A DNA stretch of 28,902 nt from a virus: the UHGV virus genome UHGV-1442816; one strand, given 5' to 3'. Of the stretch, positions 3,573-24,244 are shown piece by piece; within the stretch, counting starts at the first letter, position 1; each line of letters begins with the position of its first letter. The notes beneath the pieces were generated by a model. The model made no database searches. It worked only from the letters and a program-made list of their open reading frames with translations, and was not told where the DNA came from. Made by a program: the position numbers and the translations under genes.

Positions 3573-3580
3573 AAAAACCC

Positions 3581-3608
3581 CATAAAAAAACCCGCTCGGT
3601 GGCGGGTT
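3581..3608 (-). terminator. Intrinsic terminator downstream of the moron genes
   Basis: Minus strand reads AACCCGC-CACCGA-GCGGGTT followed by TTTTTTT: 7-bp GC-rich stem, 6-nt loop, U-tract. Lies between the stop of the 106-aa moron ORF (3630) and the start of gene V (3572). Confidence 0.65.
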
Positions 3609-3629
3609 AAATTCATACTTGAAATGAAA

Positions 3630-3950: not shown

Positions 3951-3955
3951 TAATT

Positions 3956-4294: not shown

Positions 4295-4304
4295 GTCCCG
4301 TACC

Positions 4305-5369: not shown

Positions 5370-5371
5370 TT

Positions 5372-5677: not shown

Positions 5678-5678
5678 A

Positions 5679-8548: not shown

Positions 8549-9151
8549 TGGCCGCTCTCCATTTATCTACCCGGGCGTCGTTATCCTCGCGCATGTCGAG
8601 GTAGTCATTGAGAAGCGCGATGCGGCAAAGGTCTACCGCACCGCTGTTAAGGTCTTTCTGGTCAATATGGAAGGCAAGCGCCGGGCGAAGAATAAAATCT
8701 TCACCGCCCGGCAGGCTGTTGAAGGTTATTCCGCTAGCGGGGTGGGCGTCTCGCTGGTAGGGAGTCCTTGCAAAAAATTTCCCAGCGAGTCGGCGACCAC
8801 CCGCGCCACCAGTTGCAGCATGGTAAGCAGGTCGATATCGTCAAACGCCATTTCGCCATGCTGGCAGACCGGCACCCAGCCTTTCATGTGCTCGCGTGAA
8901 ACAACGGAAAGACAGGGGAACAGGATAGCGTCCACGTCGCCATCACTCAGATCGGACACAGCATTGGCAATCTTTGGCAGGATGGTAGCCATCGCGCCTT
9001 CGGTGTCTTTGCTGCTGATCTTCTCCTGAACGCTCCGGAAGTCAGAAACCATCCCGGCCAGAACCGGCAACAGCTTGCGGGACACCTTCAGCTGTTCGAA
9101 AACGCTGAGCTTTGCGGTGCGATATTTCACGCCTTTAATTTCGAATTCCAT
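8538..9151 (-). CDS. Tail assembly chaperone, predicted -1 frameshift fusion product (G-T / E-E' type)
   Basis: The -1 frame is open from the slippery heptamer TTTTTTG (minus strand, 8777..8771) to a TAA at 8540..8538, adding about 77 residues that overlap the tape measure start. Confidence 0.5.
8726..9151 (-). CDS. Tail assembly chaperone (zero-frame product)
   Basis: 141-aa ORF between the tail tube gene and the tape measure gene, the conserved chaperone position. Confidence 0.6.
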   Translation of the reverse strand: MEFEIKGVKYRTAKLSVFEQLKVSRKLLPVLAGMVSDFRSVQEKISSKDTEGAMATILPKIANAVSDLSDGDVDAILFPCLSVVSREHMKGWVPVCQHGEMAFDDIDLLTMLQLVARVVADSLGNFLQGLPTSETPTPLAE

Positions 9152-9154
9152 GCG

Positions 9155-9595
9155 TTAAAACTCCCCGAGAAGCTGGTCAATCTTGCCGCAGTCGAATACC
9201 CAGGCGACGGTTCCGCCCTCTTTAGCGTTATTGAAATCAGGCTGTTTCTGGAATGCACACGAACGCGCAGTAGAAATATCACCCGATGCCGTGTTGCGAA
9301 TGACGATCACGTTATTGCCCCAGGTGGCAGAGGACTGGCTTTGCGCGTTATACGCCAGAGACAGCTTCTTGTTAACCGGGGAGGTTTTCAGCAGCGTCAC
9401 CGTAATGGTGCCTGACTTATCGGCGTGCAGGCTGTGCATCACTTCGCCATCGGCACCGATGGTCATGGTGTTTTTGTTGCCGCCCATGGTCTGGGTAATA
9501 CCTTCCTCAGAGTTGGCAGAACCCTGACCAAGATCGATAACGCCGGTCGGCCCGGTGAGCGACGCGGTTACATCGAGAAAAGAATAAGTTGCCAT
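9155..9595 (-). CDS. Tail tube protein (contractile tail)
   Basis: 146-aa ORF immediately downstream of the sheath gene. Confidence 0.7.
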   Translation of the reverse strand: MATYSFLDVTASLTGPTGVIDLGQGSANSEEGITQTMGGNKNTMTIGADGEVMHSLHADKSGTITVTLLKTSPVNKKLSLAYNAQSQSSATWGNNVIVIRNTASGDISTARSCAFQKQPDFNNAKEGGTVAWVFDCGKIDQLLGEF

Positions 9596-9605
9596 TTATC
9601 GCTCC

Positions 9606-10766
9606 TTAGCGAACCACGTTGATCTGCACATCGGCATAATGAACTGCGCCAGCCAGCTTACAAGCCACCTGGATTAACGGCGCTTTGCGTGCTTCTCGGT
9701 CAGCCTGTGCTTGCTCGGAAAGAGGTTGCGCATACACGTAATAACCTTTTGTCAGCGTATCGCCGGAATTCAGTTGCCCGATAGGGCCACCATTCCACAC
9801 GCCAGCCGCTACCAGACCGTTCGTGACGGACTGATCCATGGACTGTTCAACGTTGGAAAGCAGACGGGTCACACCGGCATCAGTCTGCGGAATTTTGGTG
9901 GTGCTGGTGTAAAGCAGGTTATAGAGGTTGGTCTGAACGTAGTTCTGCAACCAGTCGAGCCCGTGGCGCTCGTCGAAGAAGTCACCGTTCGCCATGACAC
10001 CCTGTTGCAGGATCGCCGTGTCGTTGGCGTAGTACACGAACACGTTCGCATTCTTCGCATCCACAGCCGCCGCCTGTCCTACCGTCAGCGTTTCGTAGGT
10101 TACGCTCGGTTCCTGTTTGAATTTCAGGGTAATGGTGGTATTGCTGCCGTTGAAATTGACAGTAAACGCGCGACCGAAAGCTGAAACCGCCGCATAAGGG
10201 CTGCTGGTGGAATATTGAATAAAGGTACGGGAATACTTACCGGCCTTTAATTTAGACGCAACATCGGTCGTCGAAGTCGTGCTGATGATCTCAGCGTCGG
10301 CTGACGTTACCCCGAAAATGCGGCTCAGGCTGGACGCTTCGATGAGTTTAGCAACCTCAATCACGTCGTCAGCATCAAGCACATCATCGCCATCAGCAAC
10401 ATCATCAGCGACAACCAGCCCATACCAGTTGGTATACTGCAGGCAGGCATTAACAGCTTGCACGATGGTTTCCACGCTTCCACCTTCGGAAGAGGTCAGC
10501 GTCTTCGCCCAGCGGCCAACATAAACCTGCGTCGGCTTCGGCGACTGGCTGAAGAAAACCTGCGCCGCTTCATATTCCGGGCTGTCGACTCCGAAGTCCT
10601 CGCCAATGTCCTCAACGGACGCATAAAGGCGAACGCGCTCCTGCACCGGAATGACAGTGGAAGAACCGAGGATCAGCAGTGCGCCGAAGTTACGACCAGT
10701 AGCCGCTTTCGGCGAGATGATCACATCAACGTTTACAACGTTGGATACAGGTAAGCCCTGCGTCAT
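9606..10766 (-). CDS. Tail sheath protein
   Basis: 386-aa ORF; size and position before the tube gene; sequence character resembles the myovirus sheath family. Confidence 0.8.
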
Positions 10767-10769
10767 AGT

Positions 10770-11375
10770 TTATTCTCCAAAAAAGGTGACTGGCGCTTCC
10801 ACCAGCGATTTAATGCCGTACTCGCGCACGACCTTCCGGCGCAGGCGCACCGTCATGTCGTAGCGGCGAACCCATTGCTGGTTGATAAGTTCGGGGAAAG
10901 GGGTCAGGCCGGTATAGTCTCCCAGGGACAAACCGAGCGCATTCAGCTCAGCATTGTTTTGCGGGACAGATATGCCATCACGAAAACGGGACGCATAAGA
11001 CATACCAGCCGGGCCATAGAACGACGCCATGCACTCGAACGTTTCATGCCGCCAGAGCTGTGCGCCCTCGTCGGTCTGATTGGTGAATGCAGGACTGTTA
11101 TCAATGGGCCACCCGGTAACGCCGAACGCACACCAGTTCGTTTCAACTGACGGTAGTGATGGCTGTTCTTTCTGCCAGCGCGGGCGAACCATCCCCGCAG
11201 GCAAGCCGGAAACATTGCGCATCCATCGGCTTAGCAGCCTGTCGAGCGCTTCGTCATAATCAGGATCGCCGCTGGTGGGTGTCAGCCAGCCGCGCTCTGT
11301 GCTGGTGTTATTGCTCAACGGGAGTTCCCCCATCAAACGGCAGTAATTCGCAATGTGCCTGGACAAAGCCAGCAC
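10770..11375 (-). CDS. Head-tail joining / tail completion protein, unknown function
   Basis: 201-aa ORF between head genes and sheath; true start may be an internal Met because the 5' end overlaps the preceding ORF. Confidence 0.4.
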   Translation of the reverse strand: MLALSRHIANYCRLMGELPLSNNTSTERGWLTPTSGDPDYDEALDRLLSRWMRNVSGLPAGMVRPRWQKEQPSLPSVETNWCAFGVTGWPIDNSPAFTNQTDEGAQLWRHETFECMASFYGPAGMSYASRFRDGISVPQNNAELNALGLSLGDYTGLTPFPELINQQWVRRYDMTVRLRRKVVREYGIKSLVEAPVTFFGE

Positions 11376-11697
11376 CGTAAGCCGTGTACGGGTCGACGAA
11401 TGTCACACGATAATCACGGTTCTGGTACGTCACGATATCGGCATCACGGCCAGTCTGCCCCTGCGTCAGCCGCTCAGTTGTCACGATGAGAATCGCGCCA
11501 CTGATAACCTGGCCGGACTGCATACGTCGGTTTTCCAGGGAGCGGTCAACAGTAACATCCCCGGCAAACTGCTTTTTAACTTCACTGTCGCTGCCGATCC
11601 CGTCCTCATCCACCGTTTGCACTCGGCGTGTTACCCACAGGTTGAAGTCGCAAAAATCGGGGTCAAAAAGTACGTCCGTCACATCAAGATTCGGCAT
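11308..11697 (-). CDS. Head-tail joining protein, unknown function
   Basis: 129-aa ORF in the structural operon. Confidence 0.4.
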   Translation of the reverse strand: MPNLDVTDVLFDPDFCDFNLWVTRRVQTVDEDGIGSDSEVKKQFAGDVTVDRSLENRRMQSGQVISGAILIVTTERLTQGQTGRDADIVTYQNRDYRVTFVDPYTAYGAGFVQAHCELLPFDGGTPVEQ

Positions 11698-12238
11698 CTT
11701 TATCCCTCACAACATGGGTAATGGCTCTGCGATATTGCCCGGTGTCAATTAGCGGTTTCACCAGGTCGGTTCCGGGAGACTCGCCAGCAGCGCGCCGCGC
11801 AAGTTCCGCTTTTGCCCCTTTGCGGCCACGGCGTGCACGGGCTTCAACGGTGCTATCAGCAAGCGGTGTAAAGCCGGTAATGGTCATGTAACGCCTGACG
11901 CCATTAGCGGCCAGCGTTCCGGCGCGGTTGAGCGCTCTTTCCGCACCCGCCGCATTACCATCAAGCGCAGCCTGCGCTGCTGCTTTTAGCTGCGGCACTG
12001 TCTGTTCTTCTACCGATTTAACACCGGGGATCAGGTGTGGTCGTGGGGGGATGTTTTGCGCCGGTGAGCCGTATTCATTGACGTAGCCGATCCCCGCATT
12101 ACCAAACGGAACATCTTCACGCTCGCTGTCTTCTTCCGGGATGCCCACCAGCACTTCTTTTTTACTGATGGATTTGAGCGCATCCAGGATGGCCTGAGCG
12201 TTATCCACCCTCGTTGTTACACCGCTTTTGAAACTCAT
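11684..12238 (-). CDS. Virion morphogenesis / neck protein, unknown function
   Basis: 184-aa ORF in the structural operon; start overlaps preceding stop. Confidence 0.4.
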
Positions 12239-12642
12239 AGCTGGCGACCGCCCGCACCGAACATCGTGATCAGCTGATAAAATTCAGCGCCATATCGGGT
12301 GTTATTCCAGAAGCCTGCGTCAGGGTTTAGCGTCGCGCTGGTGTCATAGCTGACGCTTACCTTGTCAACGGACTTGGAGGACTGAACACCATTGGTTGAG
12401 CCACCCGGGCCGCCGACGAGCATTGCCCGGCTATCTGCCGCCCAGAGCGTCATGTAGTGAGCCACGAACAACTCGACAAAGTACGGAAACAACTCTTTGC
12501 CGGTGACGTTTTCGCTCAGCAGCACATCAGCCAGATTCAGACGAAACTGGATTTGTGCTTCGGGATATTTGGCAGGGTCAGCAAACTGTGGAAAGTCGCG
12601 CCGAAAATCACTTACTGTTGGCAGGCTTTGATTCTTTGGCAT
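12235..12642 (-). CDS. Head completion / connector protein, unknown function
   Basis: ORF track gives 12235..12741; the first 30-odd codons overlap the upstream gene, so I favour the internal Met at about 12642. Confidence 0.4.
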
Positions 12643-12997
12643 CTTTCGCCCCATTACCGCCAGTCTGGGCGGCAGCAATCTGCGCTTGCAGGCTGTCGTT
12701 CTGCTCTTGCAGCTTGAGCAGCGCTTCTCGCAGATCGGCAATCAGCTGATCTTTATCGATAATCTGCTTATCTTTGTCGGCAATCTGAGCTTGCAGGCTG
12801 TCGATAATGGGTTGCAGATCATCGGTGTCGCTAATCACGCTTTCGGAAAGCTCGGAGTGCGCCTGGGTGAACCAGTGCGACGCGACCTCTTCCGGTACGT
12901 TATGCCGTCCCCGGCCAAACTCCCTTTTTGACTGATCGCCGAGCGTCAGCGTAAACGGGGTGTGAACATGGATGGTAACCAGCTTTTCTTTCGCCAT
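12608..12997 (-). CDS. Structural protein with C-terminal coiled-coil repeats, unknown function
   Basis: 129-aa ORF directly after the capsid gene and a stem-loop; C-terminus has heptad-like Q/D/K/L repeats mirrored by DNA repeats. Confidence 0.45.
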
Positions 12998-13038
12998 TTT
13001 CAGTTCCCTTCTGGCCCCTTTCGGGGCCGTTCTGGTTA

Positions 13039-13398
13039 TCAGATACCGTCCACGTAGGACAGGGTTTCTTTGTACACTGGCTCAACCGCACCGAGCTTGC
13101 CGTAGTAGGTCGCAATCTGATACAGACCGCGATACTGGACAGGAACGCTCTGCAACGGCACCAGCGGATAGCGCACGTATTTCTTGTCGTTGGTGTAGGC
13201 GATCATACGGTCTTTACCGCCAACCCCACGCCCTTTCAGCCATTTGACCGCTTTGATTTCAAGCGGAACGCCGTTCTGGTGGAAAGCGATAGTGTTCACA
13301 GCCAGATAGGTCAGCAGTGACTGGTTACCCGCTTCGGAAACCTTACGGCTCGCCAGCAGTGAATACTGCTCTGGCGGAATGCGCAGATCAGAAGGCAC
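13039..13398 (-). pseudogene. Major capsid protein, C-terminal part, downstream of an in-frame TAG
   Basis: Same frame as 13420..13980 and separated from it only by TAG at 13422..13420 plus seven sense codons. No Shine-Dalgarno sequence before the GTG at 13398. Confidence 0.55.
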
Positions 13399-13419
13399 GA
13401 TGGAATAACCGGATGCTGC

Positions 13420-13980
13420 CTAGGCATTAGACAGAATGCTGTTCACGCTATCGAGGATCTCGTCGTTGGTTGAGTTCGCCCAGGTCTTCGGCGCGTTGTT
13501 CAGCGTCACACCGACGAGGTTTGCCAGACCTTTCAGGCCGAGTGCGTCATCACCGATGTAAACCTGCTCGTCGTTGTCCATCTGCCATTTGAGCTGCATC
13601 CCGTCGTACTTCTGGGTATCAATCGGGCGGCCTACCTGCTGAGCAGCTGCCAGCTCTACAACGGTCCAGCCCAGTTCCATACCCCAGAGGTTCAGTGGAT
13701 TGCCGTCTTTGCTGATATCCACGTTCACGCCAGCAATAGCGGTGGAGTCTTTGCCTACCCAGTTTTTACCATTCGGATTTGCACCAGTACCCGCAGCGGC
13801 GAAGCTGGTATTCGTCCAGCTGGAAATGTCATCTGCGATAGACACGTCTTCACGCAGTTGAATATCTCGGGTCCAGGTGTACCCCACCAGAGGCAGGTTC
13901 AGCGTCTGGTCGAGTCGCTCCAGCTCCCCGATGAGAAAGGCACCAGAGCTATCAACGGTTGCCTGATCAAAAGTAATCAT
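13420..13980 (-). CDS. Major capsid protein, N-terminal part, ending at an in-frame amber codon
   Basis: 186-aa ORF in the position expected for the major capsid gene (after scaffold and a 167-aa head protein). The two parts together give about 313 aa, a typical capsid size. Confidence 0.55.
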   Translation of the reverse strand: MITFDQATVDSSGAFLIGELERLDQTLNLPLVGYTWTRDIQLREDVSIADDISSWTNTSFAAAGTGANPNGKNWVGKDSTAIAGVNVDISKDGNPLNLWGMELGWTVVELAAAQQVGRPIDTQKYDGMQLKWQMDNDEQVYIGDDALGLKGLANLVGVTLNNAPKTWANSTNDEILDSVNSILSNA

Positions 13981-13991
13981 TCGTCTGTTCC

Positions 13992-14495
13992 TTAAATCTT
14001 CCAGGAGATTTCTGCATTGCCGTTAGCGTCACCGGCCCCTGTGAATTCGGCGTTGGTCAGCGCCACGTTTTTGCCACTGACGGACGTGGACATGAAGCCG
14101 CCCAGCGGCACTTTGATGGATTCATCAGTGGAGACGACAACGTATACCGGGTCGCCTTTTTTGATGGTGCTGGCATCAAAATCAGAACCGAGATTAACGG
14201 TCATGTAGCCACGCTTCATGGCGTCACCCGGGAAGTTCTTATCCGTCCCCACCTGGCGAACCATGTCTGGCTGCGATGTGGTCGGATACGGACGAACGTA
14301 GATCCCCTTCACCTTGTCGGCGGTGTCACCGTCCGCCAGCGGCACGAAAAAGCCGTCAGCGTCATATTTGCCAGCCAGACCATAGGCAGCGAAGGCGTTA
14401 GCGGATTTAAGGATCACCGGCTCGACGGTTAAATCCTGCGGGCGAGAGATAGCCCCGGCAATGCCAACAGGCATCCGGTACAAATATGCAGTCAT
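13992..14495 (-). CDS. Head protein (possible decoration or accessory head protein)
   Basis: 167-aa ORF between scaffold/protease and major capsid genes. Confidence 0.45.
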   Translation of the reverse strand: MTAYLYRMPVGIAGAISRPQDLTVEPVILKSANAFAAYGLAGKYDADGFFVPLADGDTADKVKGIYVRPYPTTSQPDMVRQVGTDKNFPGDAMKRGYMTVNLGSDFDASTIKKGDPVYVVVSTDESIKVPLGGFMSTSVSGKNVALTNAEFTGAGDANGNAEISWKI

Positions 14496-14499
14496 TGGA

Positions 14500-15732
14500 T
14501 TATCCTTTGCGGTTAGACCAGAAGTCGGCGTTTTGTTTGTTCAGGGAAGCGATGCTGGTCATGCCCATATTTGGACGTTGTGCATCGCCCGTGGTGCTGC
14601 GGGTGTTTCGCCCTTTGGCAATCTCTGACACGGCGTTAAACGCCATATCTACCGATTGCTTGGGCAATTTGCGGATATCCGCATCACCGACAACCTGGCG
14701 AACCAGTGTTTTGTCAGCGGCAGCCAGCACATCACGTTTGAACGCGGTCGGTTTCACCTTACGGCTCAGATCGATACCCGGGACGATAACCTCGGCACGA
14801 TAGGCAGAGTCACCGGTAATCGTGGTTTCCTCTTCGTCGTCCTCGCCGTCGCCGGTCGGATCTTTTTTGTCTTTTTCGTCAGGCTTATTGTCGTTATCGC
14901 CCGTCGCAGTTCCTTCGAGCTTAGCCAGCAGGGCTTTGAGCAAGGTTTTGATATCGTCCTCGCCGTCGCCGGTTGGATCTCCGCCCATTTCCGGCTTTTT
15001 GTCCGGCAATGGTTGCTGCGGTGAAAGGTTAATGTTGAGGTTAACGCCGCTCGGCAGATCCCCTTCGTCACCCGTTACCGCCGCTGGCGCAGAGTCCAGC
15101 AGTTCGTTCATGGTGTCAGCGTCACCCGTTTTGATGGCCGTGCGCATGCGGGTCCACCAGCTTTTCTTTTGATTTGCCATTGTGTCTCTGTCTCCAATTG
15201 CACAACGATTTCCGGCTCTGCCTTTAGGGACAAGAGCCACATGGTTTCCGGTAATATCGACCTGCTCGGCTTTACCTGGCTCGGTCTGCTCGTACTCCGC
15301 GTCATAGCCGCACGACACTTCGCGCAGACCATCTTCGATAAGCTGAATGGCGCTTTCGTCTTTGACGATAAGGTCTGCCAGCATCAAATCAGACTGGTCA
15401 CCAGTCCCGCGCCGCACATTCTGAAGATGCCCGACAGCAAGCTCTTTCCAGTTCTCGGGATTTACCAGCCGCACATTCCCGTTTTCATCTTCAGGATGCA
15501 GGATCGTGATGCTCATCCCTTCGAATGAGGCGAGCGTGGCCGGATGGAATACCTGCTCAGGAGAACGCGTTACGACTATCTCACCGAGCTTGTCGGGTTT
15601 GAGGTTTGGCAGATCGGCAGCGCCGTAGAGCTGCTTACCCGTTCGACCTATCGGCACGTCTTTACACAACAGCGAGCCGTCAGCCAGCTGATAGCGGGTT
15701 TCCCCCAGCCGGGTATTGAAAAAATATTTCAT
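14500..15732 (-). CDS. Putative prohead protease / scaffold protein (Mu gpI-like)
   Basis: 410-aa ORF after the MuF-like gene; C-terminal half is highly acidic and low-complexity with repeated DPTGDGEDD motifs, typical of scaffolding domains. Confidence 0.5.
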   Translation of the reverse strand: MKYFFNTRLGETRYQLADGSLLCKDVPIGRTGKQLYGAADLPNLKPDKLGEIVVTRSPEQVFHPATLASFEGMSITILHPEDENGNVRLVNPENWKELAVGHLQNVRRGTGDQSDLMLADLIVKDESAIQLIEDGLREVSCGYDAEYEQTEPGKAEQVDITGNHVALVPKGRAGNRCAIGDRDTMANQKKSWWTRMRTAIKTGDADTMNELLDSAPAAVTGDEGDLPSGVNLNINLSPQQPLPDKKPEMGGDPTGDGEDDIKTLLKALLAKLEGTATGDNDNKPDEKDKKDPTGDGEDDEEETTITGDSAYRAEVIVPGIDLSRKVKPTAFKRDVLAAADKTLVRQVVGDADIRKLPKQSVDMAFNAVSEIAKGRNTRSTTGDAQRPNMGMTSIASLNKQNADFWSNRKG

Positions 15733-15746
15733 GGTTTACCTGCGAT

Positions 15747-16520
15747 TCAGGCGAGATAAGAATGAGGGTTGGGGAAGACGATTTCTTTGTAACAGCGGCA
15801 GTTCGGCAGCTCACCAGCGTGACCGGTCATACCGTCAAGCGTTGGAGGTCGGCCCCATTCGACAAACTTACCTTCCATCTCCCGATGAGAATGCCGGACG
15901 TCGCCATCTTCGGCTGTACGCCAGATATAACCATTCGAGCCGATTGACAGCGCACGCGCCTGATCCAGCGCGCCGGTTGCGCGTCCAAGCTCGGTACGGG
16001 CGATAAGGTTCGCTCGTGAGCGTGACACGTCACCGGACGCAGCTATCTCTTTCGCGAATGGCTCAGCGCGGCCACCAGCCACAACGGCCTCGATGGCTTT
16101 GTTCTGAATGTCATACACCCGATCGGCGGCCTCAAGAGGCAGTGACTTGATGTACTTAATTTGCTCGGCGACGATGGATTTCATCACCTGGCCTACCGGG
16201 GCGCGGTCGACCATGTTGCGTAGTTCTGCGCTGATGTTCCGGCTGTGCTGACGCCACTGCTTTTCATTCTGGCGCGCTATGTCTGCGGTGAAGTTCTCAG
16301 CAACCTTCGTCGCCCAGGGGGTGATGATTTCGCTGTAGCGCTCCAGCGCATCCATTATTTCGGTGACGCTATCGTTTGAACCATCGTAGCGCCCATTTAC
16401 GATATCCCCGACCGCCCGCGCTATCTGCCGTAGGCTCGTTCGATATCGGATCTCCGCCTGGCGACTCTGGCGGTTTGTCGCCAAGTTCGCCGATGCCTGG
16501 CGGCGCTTCGTCTTCGGCAT
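15747..16520 (-). CDS. Head morphogenesis protein (Mu F / SPP1 gp7 family)
   Basis: 257-aa ORF immediately after the portal gene; start uncertain because the first ~50 codons overlap the portal 3' end. Confidence 0.6.
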   Translation of the reverse strand: MPKTKRRQASANLATNRQSRQAEIRYRTSLRQIARAVGDIVNGRYDGSNDSVTEIMDALERYSEIITPWATKVAENFTADIARQNEKQWRQHSRNISAELRNMVDRAPVGQVMKSIVAEQIKYIKSLPLEAADRVYDIQNKAIEAVVAGGRAEPFAKEIAASGDVSRSRANLIARTELGRATGALDQARALSIGSNGYIWRTAEDGDVRHSHREMEGKFVEWGRPPTLDGMTGHAGELPNCRCYKEIVFPNPHSYLA

Positions 16521-17838
16521 TCTCGATATCCTCGTCGGTAATGGATGCCCCGATGCCGGTGACGTCAGAGTTTTCGCGCAGGTCGGTCATCGCCGCCTTA
16601 CGCGTCATCAATCCGTCGCCCAGCGCGGTACTGATCGCGTTGGTGGTGTTTACGGCCACCGTTGATCGGTCAACGTCTGACATTTGCCATAGCGGGTTAA
16701 ACTCAAACGTGAAATCGTCCGGCAGCGGCTTACCGAGTTCCGATCGGTGCATAATGTCCAGTATCCGGCGCATCGGCAGCCGTAAGCGGCGCTCCTGCAA
16801 TGAGCTCACCCGGTCGTAATAGTTGGCGAGGTCTGCGTCACCAGTAGAGAAGCCTTTTGGGGACTGACCGAACAGGCGTACCAGCGGGATACCAACGGCA
16901 CCGCTGATCTGCTCAGCGAACTGCGAAAGAATGTCATCCAGACCACTGAAGCTGTACTGGTGGGTTTCGAACTTATCCCGCGAGTCCATGAGCGTCATGC
17001 CTTCATTGCTCTGGAACTGGCGGATCAGGTCGATGTTCTTCAGCAGCGCCTCGAACGCCGGGCCGCCAAGCGCGATAAGCTCTCGCAGCTTCTCCACGCT
17101 GTAGGTGCGCAGATGCGCTTTGTAGACCAACTGAGCCGCGCCGACAGTGGCGCTGTCGAACGCAGTAAGCCGATCCCAGATACGCTCTACAACCGACATT
17201 CCCCATTCGTTTTCGGTCATCTTCTGCTGGAATGGCAGCGTCACCCCGTCGAAGCGGATCAGGCGACTGTGATGGATGCGCCAGGCCGGGATGCCCGTTG
17301 CGGTGGTCACCACGTCGTAAAACTCAGGTTTGCCGAGATCTGGCCCCATCTCTTTAATGCGGCGTGTCAGCACCGGGTTAATCATCCAGCGGTCGAGCGG
17401 GAGAATGCCCTTAAACTTGCCCTCGCCAATGGTTTCGAGTCGCAGCGGGGTCATTGGTGCCTGCCCCTCGATCATGATGAAGCCGACCGCGCCGCCGTAG
17501 AGACGCGACCATTTCAGCACGTCGTTCAGCGCATCCCAGATCTGCAACTCATCCAGTTGCGCTTCGAGGGTGCCACGGTCTTTGGCGTCAATCTCCGAAG
17601 TGATGCGAATGCCTTTACGGGTCATGTCGTCCGGGATAGCGTCGACCGCTTCGCCGATAACCCACGAACCGCGATATGACCATTCCACCAGCATGCGGTT
17701 GCGGCTGGTGGAGTTCGCCCGGTAGGTTGATGCTGAATGCTGGTTAGGCGTCTGCATCCCCACGCGGGCGAAAAAGTTCTCATAGCCATCAGCGGTGGCC
17801 TGTGCCGTTCGCTGAGAGGATTGCTTGTTTCGTGCCAT
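16369..17838 (-). CDS. Portal protein
   Basis: About 490 aa; I place the start at the Met whose ATG overlaps the terminase stop (TGATG) rather than the upstream Met of the ORF-track call 16369..17865. Position directly after the large terminase. Confidence 0.75.
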   Translation of the reverse strand: MARNKQSSQRTAQATADGYENFFARVGMQTPNQHSASTYRANSTSRNRMLVEWSYRGSWVIGEAVDAIPDDMTRKGIRITSEIDAKDRGTLEAQLDELQIWDALNDVLKWSRLYGGAVGFIMIEGQAPMTPLRLETIGEGKFKGILPLDRWMINPVLTRRIKEMGPDLGKPEFYDVVTTATGIPAWRIHHSRLIRFDGVTLPFQQKMTENEWGMSVVERIWDRLTAFDSATVGAAQLVYKAHLRTYSVEKLRELIALGGPAFEALLKNIDLIRQFQSNEGMTLMDSRDKFETHQYSFSGLDDILSQFAEQISGAVGIPLVRLFGQSPKGFSTGDADLANYYDRVSSLQERRLRLPMRRILDIMHRSELGKPLPDDFTFEFNPLWQMSDVDRSTVAVNTTNAISTALGDGLMTRKAAMTDLRENSDVTGIGASITDEDIENAEDEAPPGIGELGDKPPESPGGDPISNEPTADSAGGRGYRKWALRWFKR

Positions 17839-19283
17839 CAGGCTTGCCTCCCGAGCAATTCCCAAATATCCATTGTTGTATCGGTCGGCGCGAACGCCAT
17901 TATGAAAGCGTCGGCAATGTTAGGTGAGGGGATATCGCGCTTAGCCAAATCTTTCTTGCTTTCAACCATAACCCTACCGTTACGATCAAAGTCTCGGTGC
18001 GGGGTCGTCAGCTCAAGCTTTAGTTTCTCCAGGTGCGGGCACGATGAATCGATACTTATCAACTCATCAACAGGATATTCCTCTCCATTTTTCACCGCGT
18101 TGAACGTATTACGAAAGCGATCAGCTACCAGCCACCATGCCTGGGCTTTCAGATTGGCAAAGAAGTCTTTATTCGGAATGCCGTTATATTCAGAATCTGG
18201 CTCGTTCACACCAGCGCCAGCATTGAAGCGTTGATAATTAACTGGTCGTGAATAAGGATTTTCACGTCGTCTGTCTTCGTTAATTTCCGAGAATTTAGCA
18301 CCAGCAGAAGCGCCAACACCAATGGAGTCATAAACGATATCAGCACTTCTCTCTGTGGCTGCCTGATATGCCCGCTGGCAGCTTTTAAGAAGCTCGTCTT
18401 CTTTTGCCTTCCATTCATCAGCCCAATACACAACGGAGCCATGACGATAAACATTGGAGCACTTATCCGCACCGCTATCGGCAACGTCGAAGCCTATTCG
18501 CTTTCGTCCGTTTGGCTCAAAACCAAGCACCTTATGGGCATCTATTGCAGCCTCAATCCACGAAAGTTTAATAATTGCCGCGTCATCATCAGATTCGGGA
18601 ACCCCCATATAAACGTGGTCAAACCCCTCCGGATCACGACGCTTTGCAGCCGAGATAACCTTAAGCATGGTGTCTGAGAGGAATGGGTTTTCGTCGTAAT
18701 TGATTTTTCGCACCAACGTATCTTCTGGTGGATCAACAACGAAATTACGCCATACAAAGTCAGTCACCAGACCAGGGTTAAAAATAAACCAGCATTCAGA
18801 TCCGCTTTTACGAATGGTTGGTTCCAGTATCTTCCACTGGTATTCCGTTAGTGCATGGGCTTCTTCAAGCCACAAAACGCTGATACCTTCCAGGGATTTA
18901 ATTTCTTCGATATTGCGCCATAAACCGTAAAACACGAATTCTGAGCCAGTGACCCGGTTGATAATTTTATTATTCAGAATTCGGAAGCGATGCCGCAGCC
19001 CAAACCGTTCAATCTGTATTTTGAGCAGGGTATAAACCGACTCTTCGATTTTGTTCTGAATTTGACGTGCGCAACAGAAACGCAGGTTGTATTTATTTGC
19101 CAGAAAGACAGCAAACCCAGCAGCATCCCATGACTTTGACGATGAGCGCCCACCAAAAAGTACTTTATTTCGAGCCTGTGTCGTCCAGAAGTTCCTTAGG
19201 GCCGGATTCAGGGTCGGTTTGGATGTCAGAGTAGAAGTCATTAAGGTCACGATCTCCATTACCGTCATCAACGCCAGCATCAC
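17838..19283 (-). CDS. Terminase large subunit
   Basis: 481-aa ORF with Walker A-like GGRSSSKS near the N-terminus; size and position. True start may be an internal Met near 19241. Confidence 0.8.
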   Translation of the reverse strand: MMLALMTVMEIVTLMTSTLTSKPTLNPALRNFWTTQARNKVLFGGRSSSKSWDAAGFAVFLANKYNLRFCCARQIQNKIEESVYTLLKIQIERFGLRHRFRILNNKIINRVTGSEFVFYGLWRNIEEIKSLEGISVLWLEEAHALTEYQWKILEPTIRKSGSECWFIFNPGLVTDFVWRNFVVDPPEDTLVRKINYDENPFLSDTMLKVISAAKRRDPEGFDHVYMGVPESDDDAAIIKLSWIEAAIDAHKVLGFEPNGRKRIGFDVADSGADKCSNVYRHGSVVYWADEWKAKEDELLKSCQRAYQAATERSADIVYDSIGVGASAGAKFSEINEDRRRENPYSRPVNYQRFNAGAGVNEPDSEYNGIPNKDFFANLKAQAWWLVADRFRNTFNAVKNGEEYPVDELISIDSSCPHLEKLKLELTTPHRDFDRNGRVMVESKKDLAKRDIPSPNIADAFIMAFAPTDTTMDIWELLGRQA

Positions 19284-19920
19284 GACGAAGGCGATCCGCT
19301 TCCAGAGACACTTTGTCAGTGGAGGCGAGCCGATGCTCTATAGATGCCTTTGTGAATTCCAGCGACTCAATGCGGGCCGTGTTACGGTGCATGGCTTTTT
19401 GCGCAGATGAAATTAGCTCGTGAAGATTATTGGCGGTATCGCCATCAGCTATTTCAAGCTCAGTCTGCCAGCGGCCAATATTTTCAGCAGCGGTAAGGTT
19501 CGCCGCACGCAACCAGAAAAGCTCATCATCAAGAGTGAGCGCCTGAGCATCCTCGGTAATGGCATCAGATAGAAGCATTCGGCGTCCATAGCCACCATGC
19601 TTCAATGCGTTCTGATTTCCGGGTCTGGAATTATAATGAGCGCGTTTCGTTTCTGGTGAGTTTGATGGTTTTGCGACTTCGCAGTTATCCACTAAGCCCG
19701 CTGGTGGCTTACTCTTTGCCACTTTCTCCTTTTGCGAATTCGCAGTTTTATTCGCACTTTTCTTTTGCGAATTCGCACTACCATTCGCAATTTTGATATA
19801 GCGCTTTGCAGTCGAGTAATTCAGTCCCTGCGCTTCGCACCATTCTTTGGGGGAAATGCCGGTTTTGGCATGTTCGGACAGGAACCGTTGCTGAAGCTCG
19901 CCCCAGTCCGGCTTTGCCAT
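19165..19920 (-). CDS. Terminase small subunit (putative)
   Basis: 251-aa ORF directly upstream of and overlapping the large terminase gene; central lysine-rich linker with internal repeats. Confidence 0.6.
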   Translation of the reverse strand: MAKPDWGELQQRFLSEHAKTGISPKEWCEAQGLNYSTAKRYIKIANGSANSQKKSANKTANSQKEKVAKSKPPAGLVDNCEVAKPSNSPETKRAHYNSRPGNQNALKHGGYGRRMLLSDAITEDAQALTLDDELFWLRAANLTAAENIGRWQTELEIADGDTANNLHELISSAQKAMHRNTARIESLEFTKASIEHRLASTDKVSLEADRLRRDAGVDDGNGDRDLNDFYSDIQTDPESGPKELLDDTGSK

Positions 19921-19976
19921 GAATATTTCCTCTTAATGATATTATCGAAGCCCCTCAGTGAAGAGCTTCTGTAATG

Positions 19977-20162
19977 TCAGTCCCGGACGAACGTAACCTT
20001 TGTGGTTATCATTCGCCGTACAAGGCGCGTCGCTTCGCGTTGCATTTCATCAATTACTTTTGGCGTCAGCGGCTGACGCGCATATTTGCGCTCAATCTCT
20101 GCAAAAATCCCGTTCAGCACCTCGCTGTCTGGTGGGATAACTTCAACGTTTAATCGTGCCAT
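19977..20162 (-). CDS. Hypothetical protein
   Basis: 61-aa ORF between the spanin genes and the small terminase gene; no recognisable features. Confidence 0.3.
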   Translation of the reverse strand: MARLNVEVIPPDSEVLNGIFAEIERKYARQPLTPKVIDEMQREATRLVRRMITTKVTFVRD

Positions 20163-20421
20163 CTGTTTGTCCTGCCCTGTTGTTCTCGAAAGTCCTGATA
20201 TCAGCCTTATCCCTGTTGCACTGTGCTAACGCTGACAACAACGCAACATTCAGGTTAAGGCTTGCTCCCCACGTAAACGGATCGGGTAAATCTGGCTGGG
20301 GTGTTTCAGCCGTCAGGCTGGCTGGTAATGGAACTACCGGAACCGGCACGTAGACCGTTCGCGTATTCGTGCAGCCGCTTAACTGCGCCAGCAGGCACAA
20401 CACGAACAGCACAATCATCAT
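20143..20421 (-). CDS. o-spanin (Rz1-like outer-membrane lipoprotein)
   Basis: ORF track gives 20143..20487; I start at the internal Met giving MMIVLFVLCLLAQLSGC, a lipoprotein signal with lipobox LSGC, followed by a proline-rich segment. Partly overlaps the Rz 3' end in another frame. Confidence 0.55.
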   Translation of the reverse strand: MMIVLFVLCLLAQLSGCTNTRTVYVPVPVVPLPASLTAETPQPDLPDPFTWGASLNLNVALLSALAQCNRDKADIRTFENNRAGQTDGTIKR

Positions 20422-20698
20422 CCGCAACAGCCACTTTGATATCTTTCTGGGTTCTCTGTGACTCCAGTGCGATCTGCTGTTTTGCATGCTGGTTAACCTC
20501 TATAACTGTATTGACGAGTTGCAGTGATTGCAGGACGTTACGGGTAATGGCTGTTGCAGATTCAGCATTTTGTACAGCCTCATCAGCACGTTTCTTTTCG
20601 TGCTGATATTTGCTGTAGTAGTGGTTGGCAGACCAGATGAAAGAACCAATGACAGTAAAGAAGAATGCAGCGATAACCAGCTTATAGCTCAACTTCAT
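20306..20698 (-). CDS. i-spanin (Rz-like), not lambda Rz
   Basis: 130-aa ORF with an N-terminal transmembrane helix and a charged, coiled-coil-like periplasmic region; start overlaps the endolysin stop. Confidence 0.6.
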   Translation of the reverse strand: MKLSYKLVIAAFFFTVIGSFIWSANHYYSKYQHEKKRADEAVQNAESATAITRNVLQSLQLVNTVIEVNQHAKQQIALESQRTQKDIKVAVADDDCAVRVVPAGAVKRLHEYANGLRAGSGSSITSQPDG

Positions 20699-21158
20699 TT
20701 ACCACCCCACCTGCCTCTTTAAACCGGGAAATCAGGTCACTGATTTTATGTTCATACTGACCGTAACCTGCACCGGGTAACGACGCCCAGATATTGCTGC
20801 AACGGTCGATAGCCTGACGAATATCACCGCGATCAATCATCGGCAAAGCGCCACGTTCCTTAATCTGCTGCAATGCCACAGCGTCCTGGCTTTTCGGAGA
20901 GAAATCTTTCAGGCCAAGTTGCTTACGGTAGGCATCCCACCAACGGGAAAGAAGCTGGTAACGTCCGGCTGCTGTTGATTTGAGTTTTGGGTTTAGCGTG
21001 ACAAGTTTGCGAGGGTGATCTGAGTAATCAGTGAATAGCTCTCCGCCAACAATGACGTCATAACCATGATTTCTGGTTTTCTGTCGTCCGTTATCTGTTC
21101 CCTCTGACCACGCCAGCATATCTAGGAACGCCTTACGTTGATTATTGATTTCCACCAT
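20682..21158 (-). CDS. R: Endolysin, lambda R-type lytic transglycosylase
   Basis: 158-aa translation [49 protein letters not shown]... matches lambda R over most of its length by my recollection, diverging at the C-terminus. Confidence 0.9.
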
Positions 21159-21465
21159 CTTCTACTCCGGCTTTTTTAGCAGCGAAGCGTTTGATAAGCG
21201 AACCAATCGAGTCAGTACCGATGTAGCCGATGAACACGCTCGTTATATAAGCGAGATTGCTACTTAGTCCGGCGAAGTCGAGAAGGTCACGAATGAACCA
21301 GGCGATAATGGCGCACATCGTTGCGTCGATTACTGTTTTTGTAAACGCACCACCATTATATCTGCCGCGAAGGTACGCCATTGCAAACGCAAGGATTGCC
21401 CCGATGCCTTGTTCCTTTGCCGCGAGAATGGCGGCTAACAGGTCATTTTTTTCTGGCATCTTCAT
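21142..21465 (-). CDS. S: Holin, lambda S-type, with dual-start motif
   Basis: 107-aa translation [39 protein letters not shown]... is near-identical to lambda S by recollection; Met1-Lys2-Met3 dual start is retained. Confidence 0.9.
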
Positions 21466-21860
21466 GTCTTACCCCCAATAAGGGGACTTGCTCTATTTAA
21501 TTAGGAATAAGGTCGATTACTGATAGAACAAATCCAGGCTACTGTGTTTAGTAATCAGATTTGTTCGTGACCGATATGCACGGGCAAAACGGCAGGAGGT
21601 TGTTAGCGCAACCTCATGCCGCCCGCTTTCACGAAGATCATGTGTAGAAGGCCGCAGCGTAACTATCACTGATGAATTCAGGATAGCCAGTGGCTACGGC
21701 TCAGTTTGGGTCGTGCTGTTGCTGGGCGGCGATGACGCCTGTACGCATTTGGTGATCCGGTTCTGCTTCCGGTACTCGCTTAATTCAGCACAACGGAAAG
21801 AGCACTCAATGCATTTAAGCCAAGCCCCATAAGGGAGAATGCTCTTACCTGTTGCACAGA

Positions 21861-21923
21861 TATAAAAAATCCCGAAACCGTTATGCAGGCTCTAACTATT
21901 ACCTGCGAACTGTTTCGGGATTG
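21861..21923 (-). terminator. tR' intrinsic terminator (end of 6S RNA)
   Basis: Minus strand reads AATCCCGAAACAGTTCGCAGGTAATAGTTAGAGCCTGCATAACGGTTTCGGGATTTTTTATA: long hairpin plus U-tract, matching my recollection of lambda tR'. Confidence 0.75.
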
Positions 21924-22056
21924 CATTTTGCAGACCTCTCAGCCTGCGATGGTTGGAGTTCCAGACGATACGTCGAAGTGACCAACTAGGCGGAATCGGT
22001 AGTAAGCGCCGCCTCTTTTCATCTCACTACCACAACGAGCGAATTAACCCATCGTT
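21864..22056 (-). ncRNA. 6S RNA-like late leader transcript (pR' to tR'), about 190 nt
   Basis: Interval between the predicted pR' start site and the tR' U-tract; no ORF. Sequence closely matches my recollection of the lambda pR' leader. Confidence 0.6.
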
Positions 22057-22062
22057 GGGTCA

Positions 22063-22091
22063 AATTTACCCAACTTTATTCAAAAAGTCAA
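22063..22091 (-). promoter_or_regulatory. Late promoter pR' (-35 TTGACT, 17-bp spacer, -10 TAAATT) with adjacent qut region
   Basis: Minus strand TTGACTTTTTGAATAAAGTTGGGTAAATT at 22091..22063, immediately downstream of the Q stop. Confidence 0.75.
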
Positions 22092-22133
22092 TATTATGCC
22101 GTTAATATGTTGCCATCCGTGGCAATCATGCTG

Positions 22134-22757
22134 TTAACGTGTGACCGCATTCAAAATGTTGTCTGCGATTGACTCTTCTTTGTGGCATTGCACCACCAGA
22201 GCGTCATACAGCGGCTTAACAGTGCGTGACCAGGTTGGTTGGGTAAGGTTGGGTATTAGCATCGTCACAGCGCGATATGCGGCGCTTGCTGGCATTCTTG
22301 AATAGCCGACACCTTTGCATCTTCCGCATTCTTTCTCAACAACTCTCCCCCACAGCTCTGTTTTTGATATATCAACCGCACGGCCTGTACCGTGGCAATC
22401 TCTGCACCTTGCTCCCGGCGTCGCGGCACTACGGCAATAATCCGCATAAGCGAATGTTGCGAGCACTTGCAGTACCTTTGCCTTAGTATTTCCTTCAAGC
22501 TTTGCCACGCCACGGTATTTCCCCGATACCTTGTGTGCAAATTGCATCAGATAGTTGATAGCCTTTTGTTTGTCGTTCTGGCTGAGTTCGTGCTTACCGC
22601 AGAATGCAGCCATACCGAATCCGGCTTGTGATTGCGCCATCCCCATAGCAGCCATCACATCAGTACCGGAAAGAGAGTCAGAAGCCGTGGCCCGTGGTGA
22701 GTCGCTCATCATCGGGCTTTTTGGCGAATGAAATTTAGCTACGCTTTCGAGTCTCAT
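22134..22757 (-). CDS. Q: Late gene antiterminator Q (lambda Q-type)
   Basis: 207-aa translation matches my recollection of lambda Q along its length, including the Cys-rich zinc-binding region (CRDCHGTGR...CGRCKGVG). Confidence 0.9.
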   Translation of the reverse strand: MRLESVAKFHSPKSPMMSDSPRATASDSLSGTDVMAAMGMAQSQAGFGMAAFCGKHELSQNDKQKAINYLMQFAHKVSGKYRGVAKLEGNTKAKVLQVLATFAYADYCRSAATPGARCRDCHGTGRAVDISKTELWGRVVEKECGRCKGVGYSRMPASAAYRAVTMLIPNLTQPTWSRTVKPLYDALVVQCHKEESIADNILNAVTR

Positions 22758-22942
22758 GGCCTTCCCCTTTTTCCCTGTTTGACCATCAGGACGCCGTTAA
22801 CTATTACGTGACGCTCGCCTTTACTGTCTCGGTTGTACTTGAGCACTGTTCCTCTTGCGTAGGAAAGCATCCTTGCCACTTCGGTCTGATTGCCTCGTGT
22901 CTGGATAAGAAGCTCTGGTATCGTTTGAATTGTGGCGTTCAT
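22754..22942 (-). CDS. ninH: NinH-like small DNA-binding protein
   Basis: 62-aa ORF with TIPELLIQTRGNQTEVARML...RGTVLKY resembling lambda NinH; ATGA overlap with Q start. Confidence 0.7.
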   Translation of the reverse strand: MNATIQTIPELLIQTRGNQTEVARMLSYARGTVLKYNRDSKGERHVIVNGVLMVKQGKRGRP

Positions 22943-23301
22943 ACGTTCTCCAGTTCGGTGATTTTTATTCCAAGCCGTCCGCCTGGTACTTTCACACCAC
23001 GAATTACGCGAATGTCATCGAATTGCTCGTCGTCTTCCGCAAATCCGGCGTGGATAAGGGAGTCGAGTAAACCTTTCAGGATGTTGTCGAGGTCGCGGCG
23101 GCGGGAATCTGGAACGTCTGCGATGACTTTGATGCGGAGTCGTGATTTGGTGAAAATGTCTAACTTGAGTTGGCGAATGATTTGCTGAACGTCTTTTCGG
23201 TATTTCTGGCCTTTATCGCTGATGTAGTATTGGCTTTCCCGTCTTCGCCAGTAGGTGTTCACCGACGGCGGGTACGGAAGCACAAACTGATATTCGTTCA
23301 T
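22939..23301 (-). CDS. rusA: RusA-type Holliday junction resolvase
   Basis: 120-aa ORF with LPYPPSVNTYWRRR..., DVPDSRRRDLDNILKGLLDSL and GGRLGIKITE, matching RusA signature regions. Confidence 0.85.
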   Translation of the reverse strand: MNEYQFVLPYPPSVNTYWRRRESQYYISDKGQKYRKDVQQIIRQLKLDIFTKSRLRIKVIADVPDSRRRDLDNILKGLLDSLIHAGFAEDDEQFDDIRVIRGVKVPGGRLGIKITELENV

Positions 23302-23576
23302 TGGACAAACACCCTCCCATTGTTAACCAATTTTTTAAGGGTAAGCACAATGGCCCGATCCATTTCAGCCCTTCGCTCTTCCCTGCTCATATCTCTCCCA
23401 TTATCAATTCTTGAATGACAATCAACACATAGCGCAGCAGTAAGGCAATCATCTACTTTAATCCCAACCCCCTTCCCTTCATTTCTGTGAGCGGCCTGAA
23501 CTCCGTATCTTCCGCAAAGAACGCAAAATTCAATATCCCTGACTGCCTGAAGCCATTTTTTGCTTCTAAACATCAA
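23298..23576 (-). CDS. Small Cys/His-rich nin-region protein (DUF1364 / YbcO-like, putative nuclease)
   Basis: 92-aa ORF with CVLCG...H...C...CVDCH pattern; located just upstream of rusA as in other lambdoid prophages. Confidence 0.45.
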   Translation of the reverse strand: MMFRSKKWLQAVRDIEFCVLCGRYGVQAAHRNEGKGVGIKVDDCLTAALCVDCHSRIDNGRDMSREERRAEMDRAIVLTLKKLVNNGRVFVQ

Positions 23577-24075
23577 TCCCCTCCAAAAAACGTCGGTACG
23601 CTGATTTGTTTTTTATGTTGCACACTGTCTGCGCACAAACACCAAATTCTTTGGCTATATCTCTGTATTTGCCTTTTGATTTATATATTGATTTCACTTG
23701 TTCTGGCGTTAGTTTGCAGAAGTGATGATTAAACCCATGAACAAGCAATCCGGAATCAAATCCATGTTTCGCATTTTCTGTTCGCGTTACCCACTCAAGA
23801 TTTTCAACTTTATTATTAAGTTTATTTCCATCCTTGTGATTAACTTCCGGTTTGCCATCTGGGTTATCAATAAATACTTCTGCAACAATTCTGTGAACCA
23901 TTTTATATGATGGTCTTTTCCCGCCACCTGGATACAGACCGACAAATGCATATCCTCCTGGTTTAATGCCATGAGATAATTTTTTTGATTTACGGCATGA
24001 AATGATGTCTCCATTTTCAGTTACTTTATATATACCCTCAAAGCCGGGGATATCTTTTTCTTTAACATCACTCAT
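23566..24075 (-). CDS. HNH homing-endonuclease-like protein (NUMOD4 plus HNH_3-like)
   Basis: 169-aa ORF with N-terminal GFEGIYKVTENGDIIS, central VNHKDGNKLNNKVENLEWVTRTEN (HNH core) and a C-terminal helix-turn-helix-like segment; conspicuously AT-rich. Confidence 0.75.
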   Translation of the reverse strand: MSDVKEKDIPGFEGIYKVTENGDIISCRKSKKLSHGIKPGGYAFVGLYPGGGKRPSYKMVHRIVAEVFIDNPDGKPEVNHKDGNKLNNKVENLEWVTRTENAKHGFDSGLLVHGFNHHFCKLTPEQVKSIYKSKGKYRDIAKEFGVCAQTVCNIKNKSAYRRFLEGIDV

Positions 24076-24244
24076 CGTCTTCTTCCTCGTACATTGAGCT
24101 ATTCGGATCGCTCATCAGTTCTGCGCAGCAATCTGAGCACACGTGAACTTCCAGCACATGCAGCTTCTGACCGCAGTTAGCGCACGTTAAAGCCCGCTCG
24201 ACGCTTTCTTTCTGGTATTGAAGGGATTGGGATGGGCTAAGCAT
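24068..24244 (-). CDS. ninF: NinF
   Basis: Below ORF-track size cutoff. Translation MLSPSQSLQYQKESVERALTCANCGQKLHVLEVHVCSDCCAELMSDPNSSMYEEEDDE matches my recollection of lambda NinF. Confidence 0.7.
   Translation of the reverse strand: MLSPSQSLQYQKESVERALTCANCGQKLHVLEVHVCSDCCAELMSDPNSSMYEEEDDE

Follow-up and report, generated by a model that had tools for sequence, protein, structure and literature searches.

The viral genome UHGV-1442816, analysed here as a stretch of 28,902 nucleotides (nt; hereafter the window), carries a late operon built from parts of different ancestry, and one of the joints between these parts lies inside the endolysin gene R. We consider it highly probable that the window belongs to a lambdoid temperate prophage of the SEN34 kind, with a mosaic late operon and an ancestral joint inside R. 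All genes in the window, and all features described below, are on the minus strand. In the sense of transcription, the antiterminator gene Q is followed by a non-coding stretch, the holin gene S, R, the spanin genes Rz and Rz1, a 61-codon open reading frame (ORF), the small and large terminase genes and the portal gene. The head, neck, sheath, tube, tape-measure, baseplate and tail-fibre genes lie 3' of the portal gene and reach the window start, beyond which the tail-fibre gene continues.

The mosaic structure of R

A blastn comparison with phage lambda (NC_001416) returned a single block of 2031 nt with 95.2% identity, in which window positions 22767-20746 correspond to lambda 43875-45905. 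It contains Q, the late promoter pR' with its qut site, the 6S leader, the terminator tR', S and the first ~137 codons of R, all of which a first-pass annotation, made from the sequence alone, had described as close to lambda. Between positions 165 and 20745, neither blastn nor tblastx detected any similarity to lambda. When identity to lambda and to phage SfIV was compared to find the breakpoint, the lambda similarity proved neither weaker than that annotation had stated nor continuous through Rz and the terminase genes.

R (20682-21158) comprises 158 codons, and its product shares 92.4% amino acid (aa) identity with lambda R. Pfam and NCBIfam returned no family for this protein, and its assignment comes instead from the solved lambda structure (PDB 1AM7, E = 3.9e-100) and PHROG 90. 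Glu19 in the motif AWSEGTD, which we take to be the catalytic residue of lambda R, is conserved. Differences from the lambda protein are concentrated in the last ~24 residues: lambda R ends in ...GQFEHKADSLIAKFKEAGGTVREIDV and the window R in another 26-residue sequence, both termini having been given exactly right in the first-pass annotation. At the nucleotide level, the last ~34 codons are a different allele with 61% identity to lambda. Lambda similarity collapses from ~20784; blastn extends the match as far as 20746, which leaves ~64 nt to the R stop codon.

A megablast search identified the piece just past the lambda match as part of the lysis cassette of the Shigella phage SfIV and of the E. 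coli phages vB_EcoM-720R4 and vB_EcoM-689R6. SfIV is a lambdoid myovirus (PMC3851460), and its 'lysin' is a full-length lambda R homologue of 158 codons. The lysis cassette of SfII, SfIV and SfV, serotype-converting myoviruses of Shigella flexneri (SfIV orf51-53; PMC3851460), shares with the window the 3' end of R (97%) and the first part of Rz (95%), and Rz1 is of the overlapped kind in both SfIV and the window. The overlap between R and Rz is 17 nt in the window and in SfIV versus 4 nt in lambda. SfIV differs from the window in its holin, which is unrelated (24% aa), in the 5' part of R (75%) and in Q, which comes from another family; the only nucleotide match between the SfIV genome and the window is R-Rz-Rz1. 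The 3' end of R is another allele of the same gene, travelling with Rz and Rz1 of the SfII/SfIV/SfV type, and is not foreign sequence. A literature search on the vB_EcoM-606R2 phage series found nothing.

R divides into three parts. The 5' part (codons 1-41, 21037-21158) is of lambda type, with 95.1% identity to lambda, 99.2% to phage Dewey and 74.6% to SfIV. The core (codons 42-124, 20785-21036, 252 nt) is common to all R lineages, being 94.0% identical to lambda, 94.8% identical to SfIV and ~91-96% identical across all lineages. The 3' part (codons 125-158, 20682-20784) is of the SfII/SfIV/SfV type, with 61.2% identity to lambda and 97.1% to SfIV, and it holds the start of Rz together with its upstream signals. 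In a three-way alignment, the window is 93-97% identical to lambda and 68-80% identical to SfIV from the R start to ~21040, resembles both from 21040 to 20800, and from ~20780 on is 97% identical to SfIV and 55-63% identical to lambda.

Sites at which lambda and SfIV disagree follow the same course. The window sides with lambda, almost without exception, down to 21036, is mixed between 21021 and 20805, and is SfIV-like from 20784. The maximum chi-square over 177 informative sites was 135, a value that 0 of 2000 permutations reached. The statistic peaks between 21036 and 20971, on the 5' border of the core. The switch of affinity within R is far beyond chance. We also calculated the proportion of synonymous differences (pS) for codons 1-41, 42-124 and 125-158. 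Between lambda and SfIV, pS is 0.85, 0.20 and 0.91, respectively; between the window and lambda it is 0.23, 0.25 and 0.92; and between the window and SfIV it is 0.73, 0.22 and 0.08. For any pair, pS in the core is 0.20-0.38, and the flanking segments are saturated. This contrast between segments reproduces the pattern independently of protein constraint.

We compared R alleles in 11 genes and found two 5' types and three 3' types, with five of the six possible combinations present. The lambda 5' type is joined to the lambda 3' type in lambda and Dewey, to the SfIV 3' type in the window, ABWA45, MB19, E2348/69 and 2016C04-116, and to a third 3' type in HK633. The SfIV 5' type is joined to the SfIV 3' type in SfIV and 720R4, and to the third type in 689R6. 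HK633 and vB_EcoM-689R6 are identical in the 3' segment (pS 0.00) and saturated in the 5' segment (pS 0.84). Transition points are staggered by lineage, a pattern to be expected if homologous exchange took place within a shared sequence; at 20784-20769, for example, 720R4 and E2348/69 still resemble lambda, and after it they resemble SfIV. In the phage collection, similarity between the window and lambda-type phages stops at 20746 without exception. The Hendrixvirinae HK633 and HK106 share with the window a lambda-type Q, an identical pR'/qut, S, and the 5' part and core of R, and their R, too, ends in an allele other than that of lambda, but it is of the third type (76% identity to the window in the R 3' part and 55% in Rz) and their virions are those of siphoviruses.

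Distribution and origin of the joint

To follow the joint in other genomes, we used a query that can be covered at at least 80% only by the chimeric arrangement of lambda-type S, R and SfIV-type Rz. This cassette was found in 56 of 5,426 complete Escherichia coli genomes at 92-98% identity, among them the enteropathogenic strain E2348/69. With a shorter query, which lets in the HK633 type as well, the number of complete E. coli genomes rose to 86. O145:H28 RM13514 and the avian pathogenic strain BEN2908 are further carriers. The S-R-Rz query matches up to 5 places per E. coli genome, with a median of 1, and ~2,300 E. coli genomes give a match. The exact pattern of the chimeric R allele occurs in 9 IMG/VR contigs and gave 0 matches among GTDB species representatives.

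Longer collinearity is confined to few genomes. Collinearity over all of 19100-22800 was found in no more than three complete genomes, namely ABWA45 (NZ_CP022154; 98.5%) and CX12 and CX08 (96.7%). ABWA45 is collinear from 23301 down to 11308, the end of the compared locus, and shares the whole arrangement; it differs by a ~12-kilobase (kb) element and by lacking the HNH gene of the nin region. E2348/69 (NC_011601) shares S, the chimeric R, Rz, Rz1, the 61-codon ORF and the portal/head module, and differs in its Q, in its terminase and in the presence of an HNH gene and two tRNAs in the interval from Q to S. Upstream, phage Dewey matches best, with 97.2% identity over 20746-24210; it has the same nin-region HNH gene as the window, and its rusA-ninH-Q order is HK97-style. 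The joint is an old, widespread and ancestral allele boundary of the population, neither private to the present genome nor recent in it.

We propose that the late operon comprises at least four exchangeable modules: a lambda/HK97-type block of Q-pR'-qut-6S-tR'-S-R(5'), an SfII/SfIV/SfV-type block of R(3')-Rz-Rz1 with the 61-codon ORF, a PBSX-type terminase cassette, and a SEN34/Omnitron-type module from portal to tail fibre. In the E. coli prophage pool, R would exist as alternative 5' and 3' alleles around the shared 252-nt core. Homologous recombination in this core between co-resident lambdoid prophages would reassort the holin side and the spanin side, and the joint would have arisen and would be spreading in this way. 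The final codons of R contain the start and ribosome-binding region of Rz, which probably explains why the 3' allele co-segregates with its own Rz. By analogy with lambda, the lambda-type Q is predicted to load onto RNA polymerase at pR'/qut and to read through tR'. One transcript of ~22 kb could then supply the holin, the transglycosylase, the overlapped spanin, the terminase and the myovirus structural genes.

Several points weigh against this proposal. The crossover in R can be placed only within the shared core, 21036-20785. The first-pass annotation had put a recombination joint near the 3' end of R, and while similarity does collapse there, the crossover itself is bounded no more closely than this. 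Dewey, MB19 and ABWA45, as closer relatives, have cores that are 95.6-96.0% identical to that of the window and do not narrow the interval. The present data are compatible with either polarity of the exchange, whichever arrangement was the original. Neither lambda nor SfIV is a true parent, Dewey being closer on the left and MB19 and ABWA45 on the right. The low pS of the core could be due in part to constraint at the nucleotide level instead of recent shared ancestry. Lastly, an amber codon in the major capsid gene (described below) may mean that the prophage is not viable, being unable to build heads; because of this stop, the view of the late operon as a working one draws on its relatives.

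An origin by illegitimate recombination with selection (the Hendrix model), in which the boundary between core and 3' part was made in that way and homologous exchange spread it later, appears unlikely to us. Identity to lambda does fall from ~94% to ~61% within about 40 nt, and lambdoid modules typically meet in abrupt transitions of this sort (Juhala et al. 2000; Clark et al. 2001; both as cited in PMC5261728). However, the R 3' alleles are colinear and of equal length (158 codons), contain no indel and conserve the motif GQ[FY]EHK..LI..FKEAGG, so ordinary divergence and homologous exchange are enough to account for them, and the staggering of transition points by lineage also argues against this origin. 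Slightly less likely still is that the core is a selected nucleotide-level 'linker' (Susskind-Botstein) or a hidden functional element, for example an RNA structure or an internal signal. The low pS of the core is consistent with a linker, but frequent recombination explains it just as well.

A recent and unique event in the host, with lambda itself recombining with a resident myovirus prophage through a crossover at the extreme 3' end of R, would be the literal reading of the first-pass finding, but it is improbable and for the most part refuted. It would fit the sharp stop of lambda similarity at 20746 and the non-lambda genes downstream, but the same arrangement recurs in the 56 complete E. 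coli genomes (92-98%) and in IMG/VR contigs, and a divergence of 2-8% among carriers speaks against recent descent from the present prophage. The closest left relative is Dewey/HK97-like (97.2%, 20746-24210) and not lambda, the loss of similarity at one coordinate in all lambda-type phages marks a population-wide allele boundary, and SfIV-type similarity begins already at ~21040. We regard as very improbable a chimeric contig in which assembly joined a lambda-like prophage and an unrelated myovirus prophage via the R core repeat. The 252-nt core (~95%) would be a plausible collapse point for short-read assemblers, and S-R-Rz does match in as many as 5 places per genome (median 1); against this, the same join is present in closed genomes (ABWA45 over 11308-23301, CX12 and CX08 over 19100-22800), and the S-R-Rz join in another 56. 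It is hardly credible that no recombination took place, with the termini of R simply evolving faster than its core and the likeness to SfIV due to convergence or rate variation. The core does encode the catalytic body of the enzyme, and its protein sequence does not vary, but the contrast appears at synonymous sites (core pS 0.20 versus 0.85-0.91 in the flanks). Moreover, pS between window and SfIV is 0.08 in the 3' part and 0.73 in the 5' part, HK633 and 689R6 combine an identical 3' part with saturated 5' parts, and no permutation (0/2000) equalled the observed chi-square.

The late switch, lysis genes, terminase and virion

The late switch upstream of the joint is of lambda type: the promoter hexamers, the pause element, the tR' hairpin and the dual start of S are conserved, as is Glu19 of R. 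Q (22134-22757) is a lambda-type late-gene antiterminator with 99.5% aa identity to lambda Q (Pfam Antiterm, E = 1.2e-57, 192 bits against a cut-off of 26.7; solved lambda structure PDB 7UBM, E = 6.7e-139). Upstream of Q, the window has ninH-rusA and lambda has ninG-ninH-ninI. The nin region of the window also contains an HNH homing-endonuclease gene (23566-24075; phrog_59, E = 7.6e-51) adjoining a DUF1364-like ORF; this gene is common to phage Dewey and is absent at the corresponding position in ABWA45.

The non-coding stretch between Q and S (21466-22133, 668 nt) aligns to lambda with a mean column identity of 96%. A consensus scan placed the late promoter pR' with its qut/Q-binding region at 22091-22063 (TTGACT-17-TAAATT), where 27 of the 29 promoter positions match lambda and both differences fall in the spacer. 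The sequence equals the annotated PR'/qut of coliphage HK633 without difference, and the promoter-proximal pause element AACGAT downstream of pR' is conserved. The 6S leader region (21862-22055), nearly identical to lambda 44588-44781, ends in tR' after ~194 nt, its +1 position being taken from lambda coordinates. The tR' hairpin (~21869-21921) folds at -28.3 kcal/mol (z = -4.9) and is followed by AUUUUUU, with the U-tract at 21862-21867. A simple terminator scan missed it because the hairpin loop exceeds the limit of the scan, and direct folding recovered it. An Rfam scan of the whole window gave 0 families at the gathering score; the lambda 6S leader is evidently not a curated Rfam family.

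The Q-S spacer is a hot spot in relatives, with insertions of tRNA-Asn/Thr, HNH and methylase genes, and similarity breaks at 21636, 21709, 21806 and 21862. A tRNA scan found none in the window, and E2348/69-type relatives carry tRNA-Asn and tRNA-Thr between Q and S. Right after tR', a patch of ~35 nt (~21800-21837) is substituted relative to lambda 44807-44845.

S (21142-21465) encodes a lambda-type holin/antiholin with the Met1-Lys2-Met3 dual start (N-terminus MKMPEK). It shares 98.1% aa identity with lambda S, scores 125.7 bits for the TIGR01594 equivalog, whose cut-off is 55, and belongs to Pfam Phage_holin_3_1. From S to the terminase small-subunit gene, the terminator scan of the coding strand found no terminator-like site.

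Downstream of the joint, Rz (20306-20698) encodes an i-spanin of the Rz type (DUF2570/phrog_214; phrog_214 E = 3e-44) with an N-terminal transmembrane segment, although the DUF2570 score of 22.1 bits lies under the cut-off of 26.6. It has 130 codons in ABWA45 and E2348/69, and its N-terminus in the window reads LVIAAFFFTVIGSFIW. Rz is 81% identical (aa) to SfIV Rz, whereas its identity to lambda Rz is 26% over 103 aa (E = 4e-6). Rz1 (20143-20487) encodes an o-spanin of the Rz1/LysC type with the lipobox LSGC (LSG|C) (Pfam LysC, 66.5 bits against a cut-off of 27; phrog_456, E = 3.5e-31); it is 73% identical (aa) to SfIV Rz1 and has no significant match to lambda Rz1. Rz1 starts inside Rz in another frame, the likely true start being Met23 at about 20421, and its ORF runs 163 nt past the Rz stop. 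In lambda, Rz1 is embedded in Rz; with 26% identity in Rz, no Rz1 match and an overlapped layout, the pair falls outside the lambda type and belongs to the overlapped two-component spanins, like P2 LysB/LysC (architecture class: Kongari et al. 2018, PMC6139136). The first-pass annotation had likewise called these spanins non-lambda.

A further mosaic boundary lies inside the spanin pair, at 20143-20347, which covers the Rz 3' end and the mature part of Rz1. In MB19, Rz is 97% identical to ~20347, beyond which the Rz C-terminus is diverged and Rz1 is shorter and diverged. Similarity to SfIV falls from ~95% to ~60% over 20143-20347, and the C-terminal regions of both spanins seem to have been exchanged together. 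RefSeq omits the intact 130-codon Rz (DUF2570) in ABWA45 (locus L005, 22103-22495) and E2348/69 (locus L007, 6723-7115) and lists the overlapping LysC/Rz1 gene in both. The 61-codon ORF (19977-20162; phrog_12811, E = 2.1e-35), with no assigned function, overlaps the Rz1 stop by 20 nt and accompanies the spanin module in E2348/69, ABWA45 and several IMG/VR contigs.

The terminase cassette (17838-19920) consists of a small subunit (19165-19920) and a PBSX-type large subunit (17838-19283), identified by phrog_370 (E = 1.7e-75), Terminase_3 and TIGR01547 (143.9 bits); it is ~80% identical (nt) to Klebsiella phages. In E2348/69-type prophages and several IMG/VR contigs, similarity to the window extends from S to 19902, is absent over the terminase interval and resumes at 17867, and in E2348/69-type relatives and five loci the shared flanks enclose another terminase pair. 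Since both flanks match and 17867-19902 does not, the terminase cassette is a separately exchanged module. MB19 has the S-R-Rz cassette at 97.8% identity, followed there by a P27-type terminase and an HK97-type head. Because the cassette precedes different head modules, the joint in R is not itself the junction between lambda and myovirus sequence.

The virion genes (1-17867) form a SEN34-like (Brunovirus-like) contractile-tail module by Pfam and PHROG. It includes the DUF1073 portal (16369-17865), the tail sheath (9606-10766; phrog_205, E = 3.7e-129; DUF3383) and a KPP10-type tail tube (9155-9595). The other head genes encode a Mu-F-like head protein, DUF2213, a cement protein, the major capsid protein and a neck terminator; the other tail genes encode an assembly chaperone, an SLT-domain tape measure, a baseplate hub, a gpV-apex spike, Baseplate_J and DUF2612. 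From portal to tail fibre, the window is 96-97% identical (nt) to Citrobacter phage Omnitron. Over this span it is also collinear with SEN34, a Salmonella phage of the genus Brunovirus, with identities of 65-84% (nt) and 62-97% (aa); all 11 structural proteins tested from the portal onwards fall in this aa range. SEN34 is genetically lambda-like and has a contractile tail by electron microscopy (PMC5261728). The genes of the window, among them those for sheath, tube, Baseplate_J and spike, confirm the contractile-tail module that the first-pass annotation had predicted; the particles seen by electron microscopy are those of SEN34.

SEN34 and the window share the gene order Q, holin, endolysin, Rz, small and large terminase, DUF1073 portal, Mu-F-like protein and DUF2213, followed by capsid, sheath, tube, tape measure, baseplate and tail fibre, with aa identities of 94% for the portal, 97% for DUF2213 and 65% for the sheath. 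They differ in Q (26%), holin (29%) and large terminase (34% aa), and endolysin, Rz and small terminase give no match. On these differences, the window has a lambda-type switch and lysis cassette and another terminase. Within the 28.9-kb window to which the whole-genome comparison is limited, the virion is 65-84% identical (nt) to SEN34, and membership in the genus Brunovirus is doubtful because the late switch, lysis genes and terminase are unrelated.

The SfIV virion, with an HK97-type head and a Mu-type tail, has nothing in common with that of the window: tblastn with 17 virion proteins as queries (16 genes, with the capsid split in two) gave no match in the whole SfIV genome at E <= 1e-3, and an SfV/Mu-like virion was rejected. 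The SfV/Mu-like affiliation that the first-pass annotation had considered holds for the R 3' end and the spanins but fails for the virion. Its statement that everything downstream of the joint is unrelated to lambda stands for 165-20745 and was rejected as an absolute: a 5' piece of the tail-fibre gene (11-164, 154 nt) aligns at 76.6% identity with the beginning of lambda stf (orf-314, 21032-21185). This piece has repeated DATLTALAGLA..KLPYFTGNDTA motifs and is the sole similarity to lambda in the virion region.

The major capsid gene (13039-13980) contains an in-frame amber TAG at 13420-13422, which splits it into ORFs of 186 and 119 codons (Pfam Major_capside 4-122 and 132-251). The codon at this position is TGG (Trp) in ABWA45, IMG/VR contig L012 and Omnitron. 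The amber is either a real nonsense mutation, in which case the prophage would be defective unless suppressed, or a base error. The element that sets ABWA45 apart is a ~12-kb insertion (locus L005, 28501-40326) at window ~14477-14482, between the DUF2213 and cement-protein genes. It encodes an arm-type integrase, an Icd-like protein, a second tyrosine recombinase, a TOPRIM/DUF927 primase and an M41-type peptidase, and has the appearance of a P4-like satellite or integrative element within the prophage head genes; it is absent from the window.

Meaning for lambdoid modular evolution

Lambdoid phages are pervasively mosaic, module boundaries can lie within genes, and lambda-like regulation can be combined with myovirus virions, as in the SfV group and SEN34. 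The arrangement described here is textbook lambdoid mosaicism and is already present in exact form in public genomes, and its significance beyond annotation is little. Its least ordinary trait is the uniformly low pS of the R core in all lineages. For annotation, the window is a SEN34-like lambdoid myovirus prophage, and R is unsuitable as a single phylogenetic marker. The capsid amber bears on inducibility, and electron microscopy of induced particles may find none.

If the core of R were a linker or a hidden element, it would be kept, in thousands of E. coli prophages, for promoting or tolerating the exchange of the modules on either side of it, holin on the one and spanin on the other. The window offers a clean, quantifiable case of lambdoid modular evolution, with a lambda Q/pR' switch upstream of a contractile-tail virion of unrelated ancestry and with the endolysin gene as the point of homologous exchange between the holin and spanin modules.

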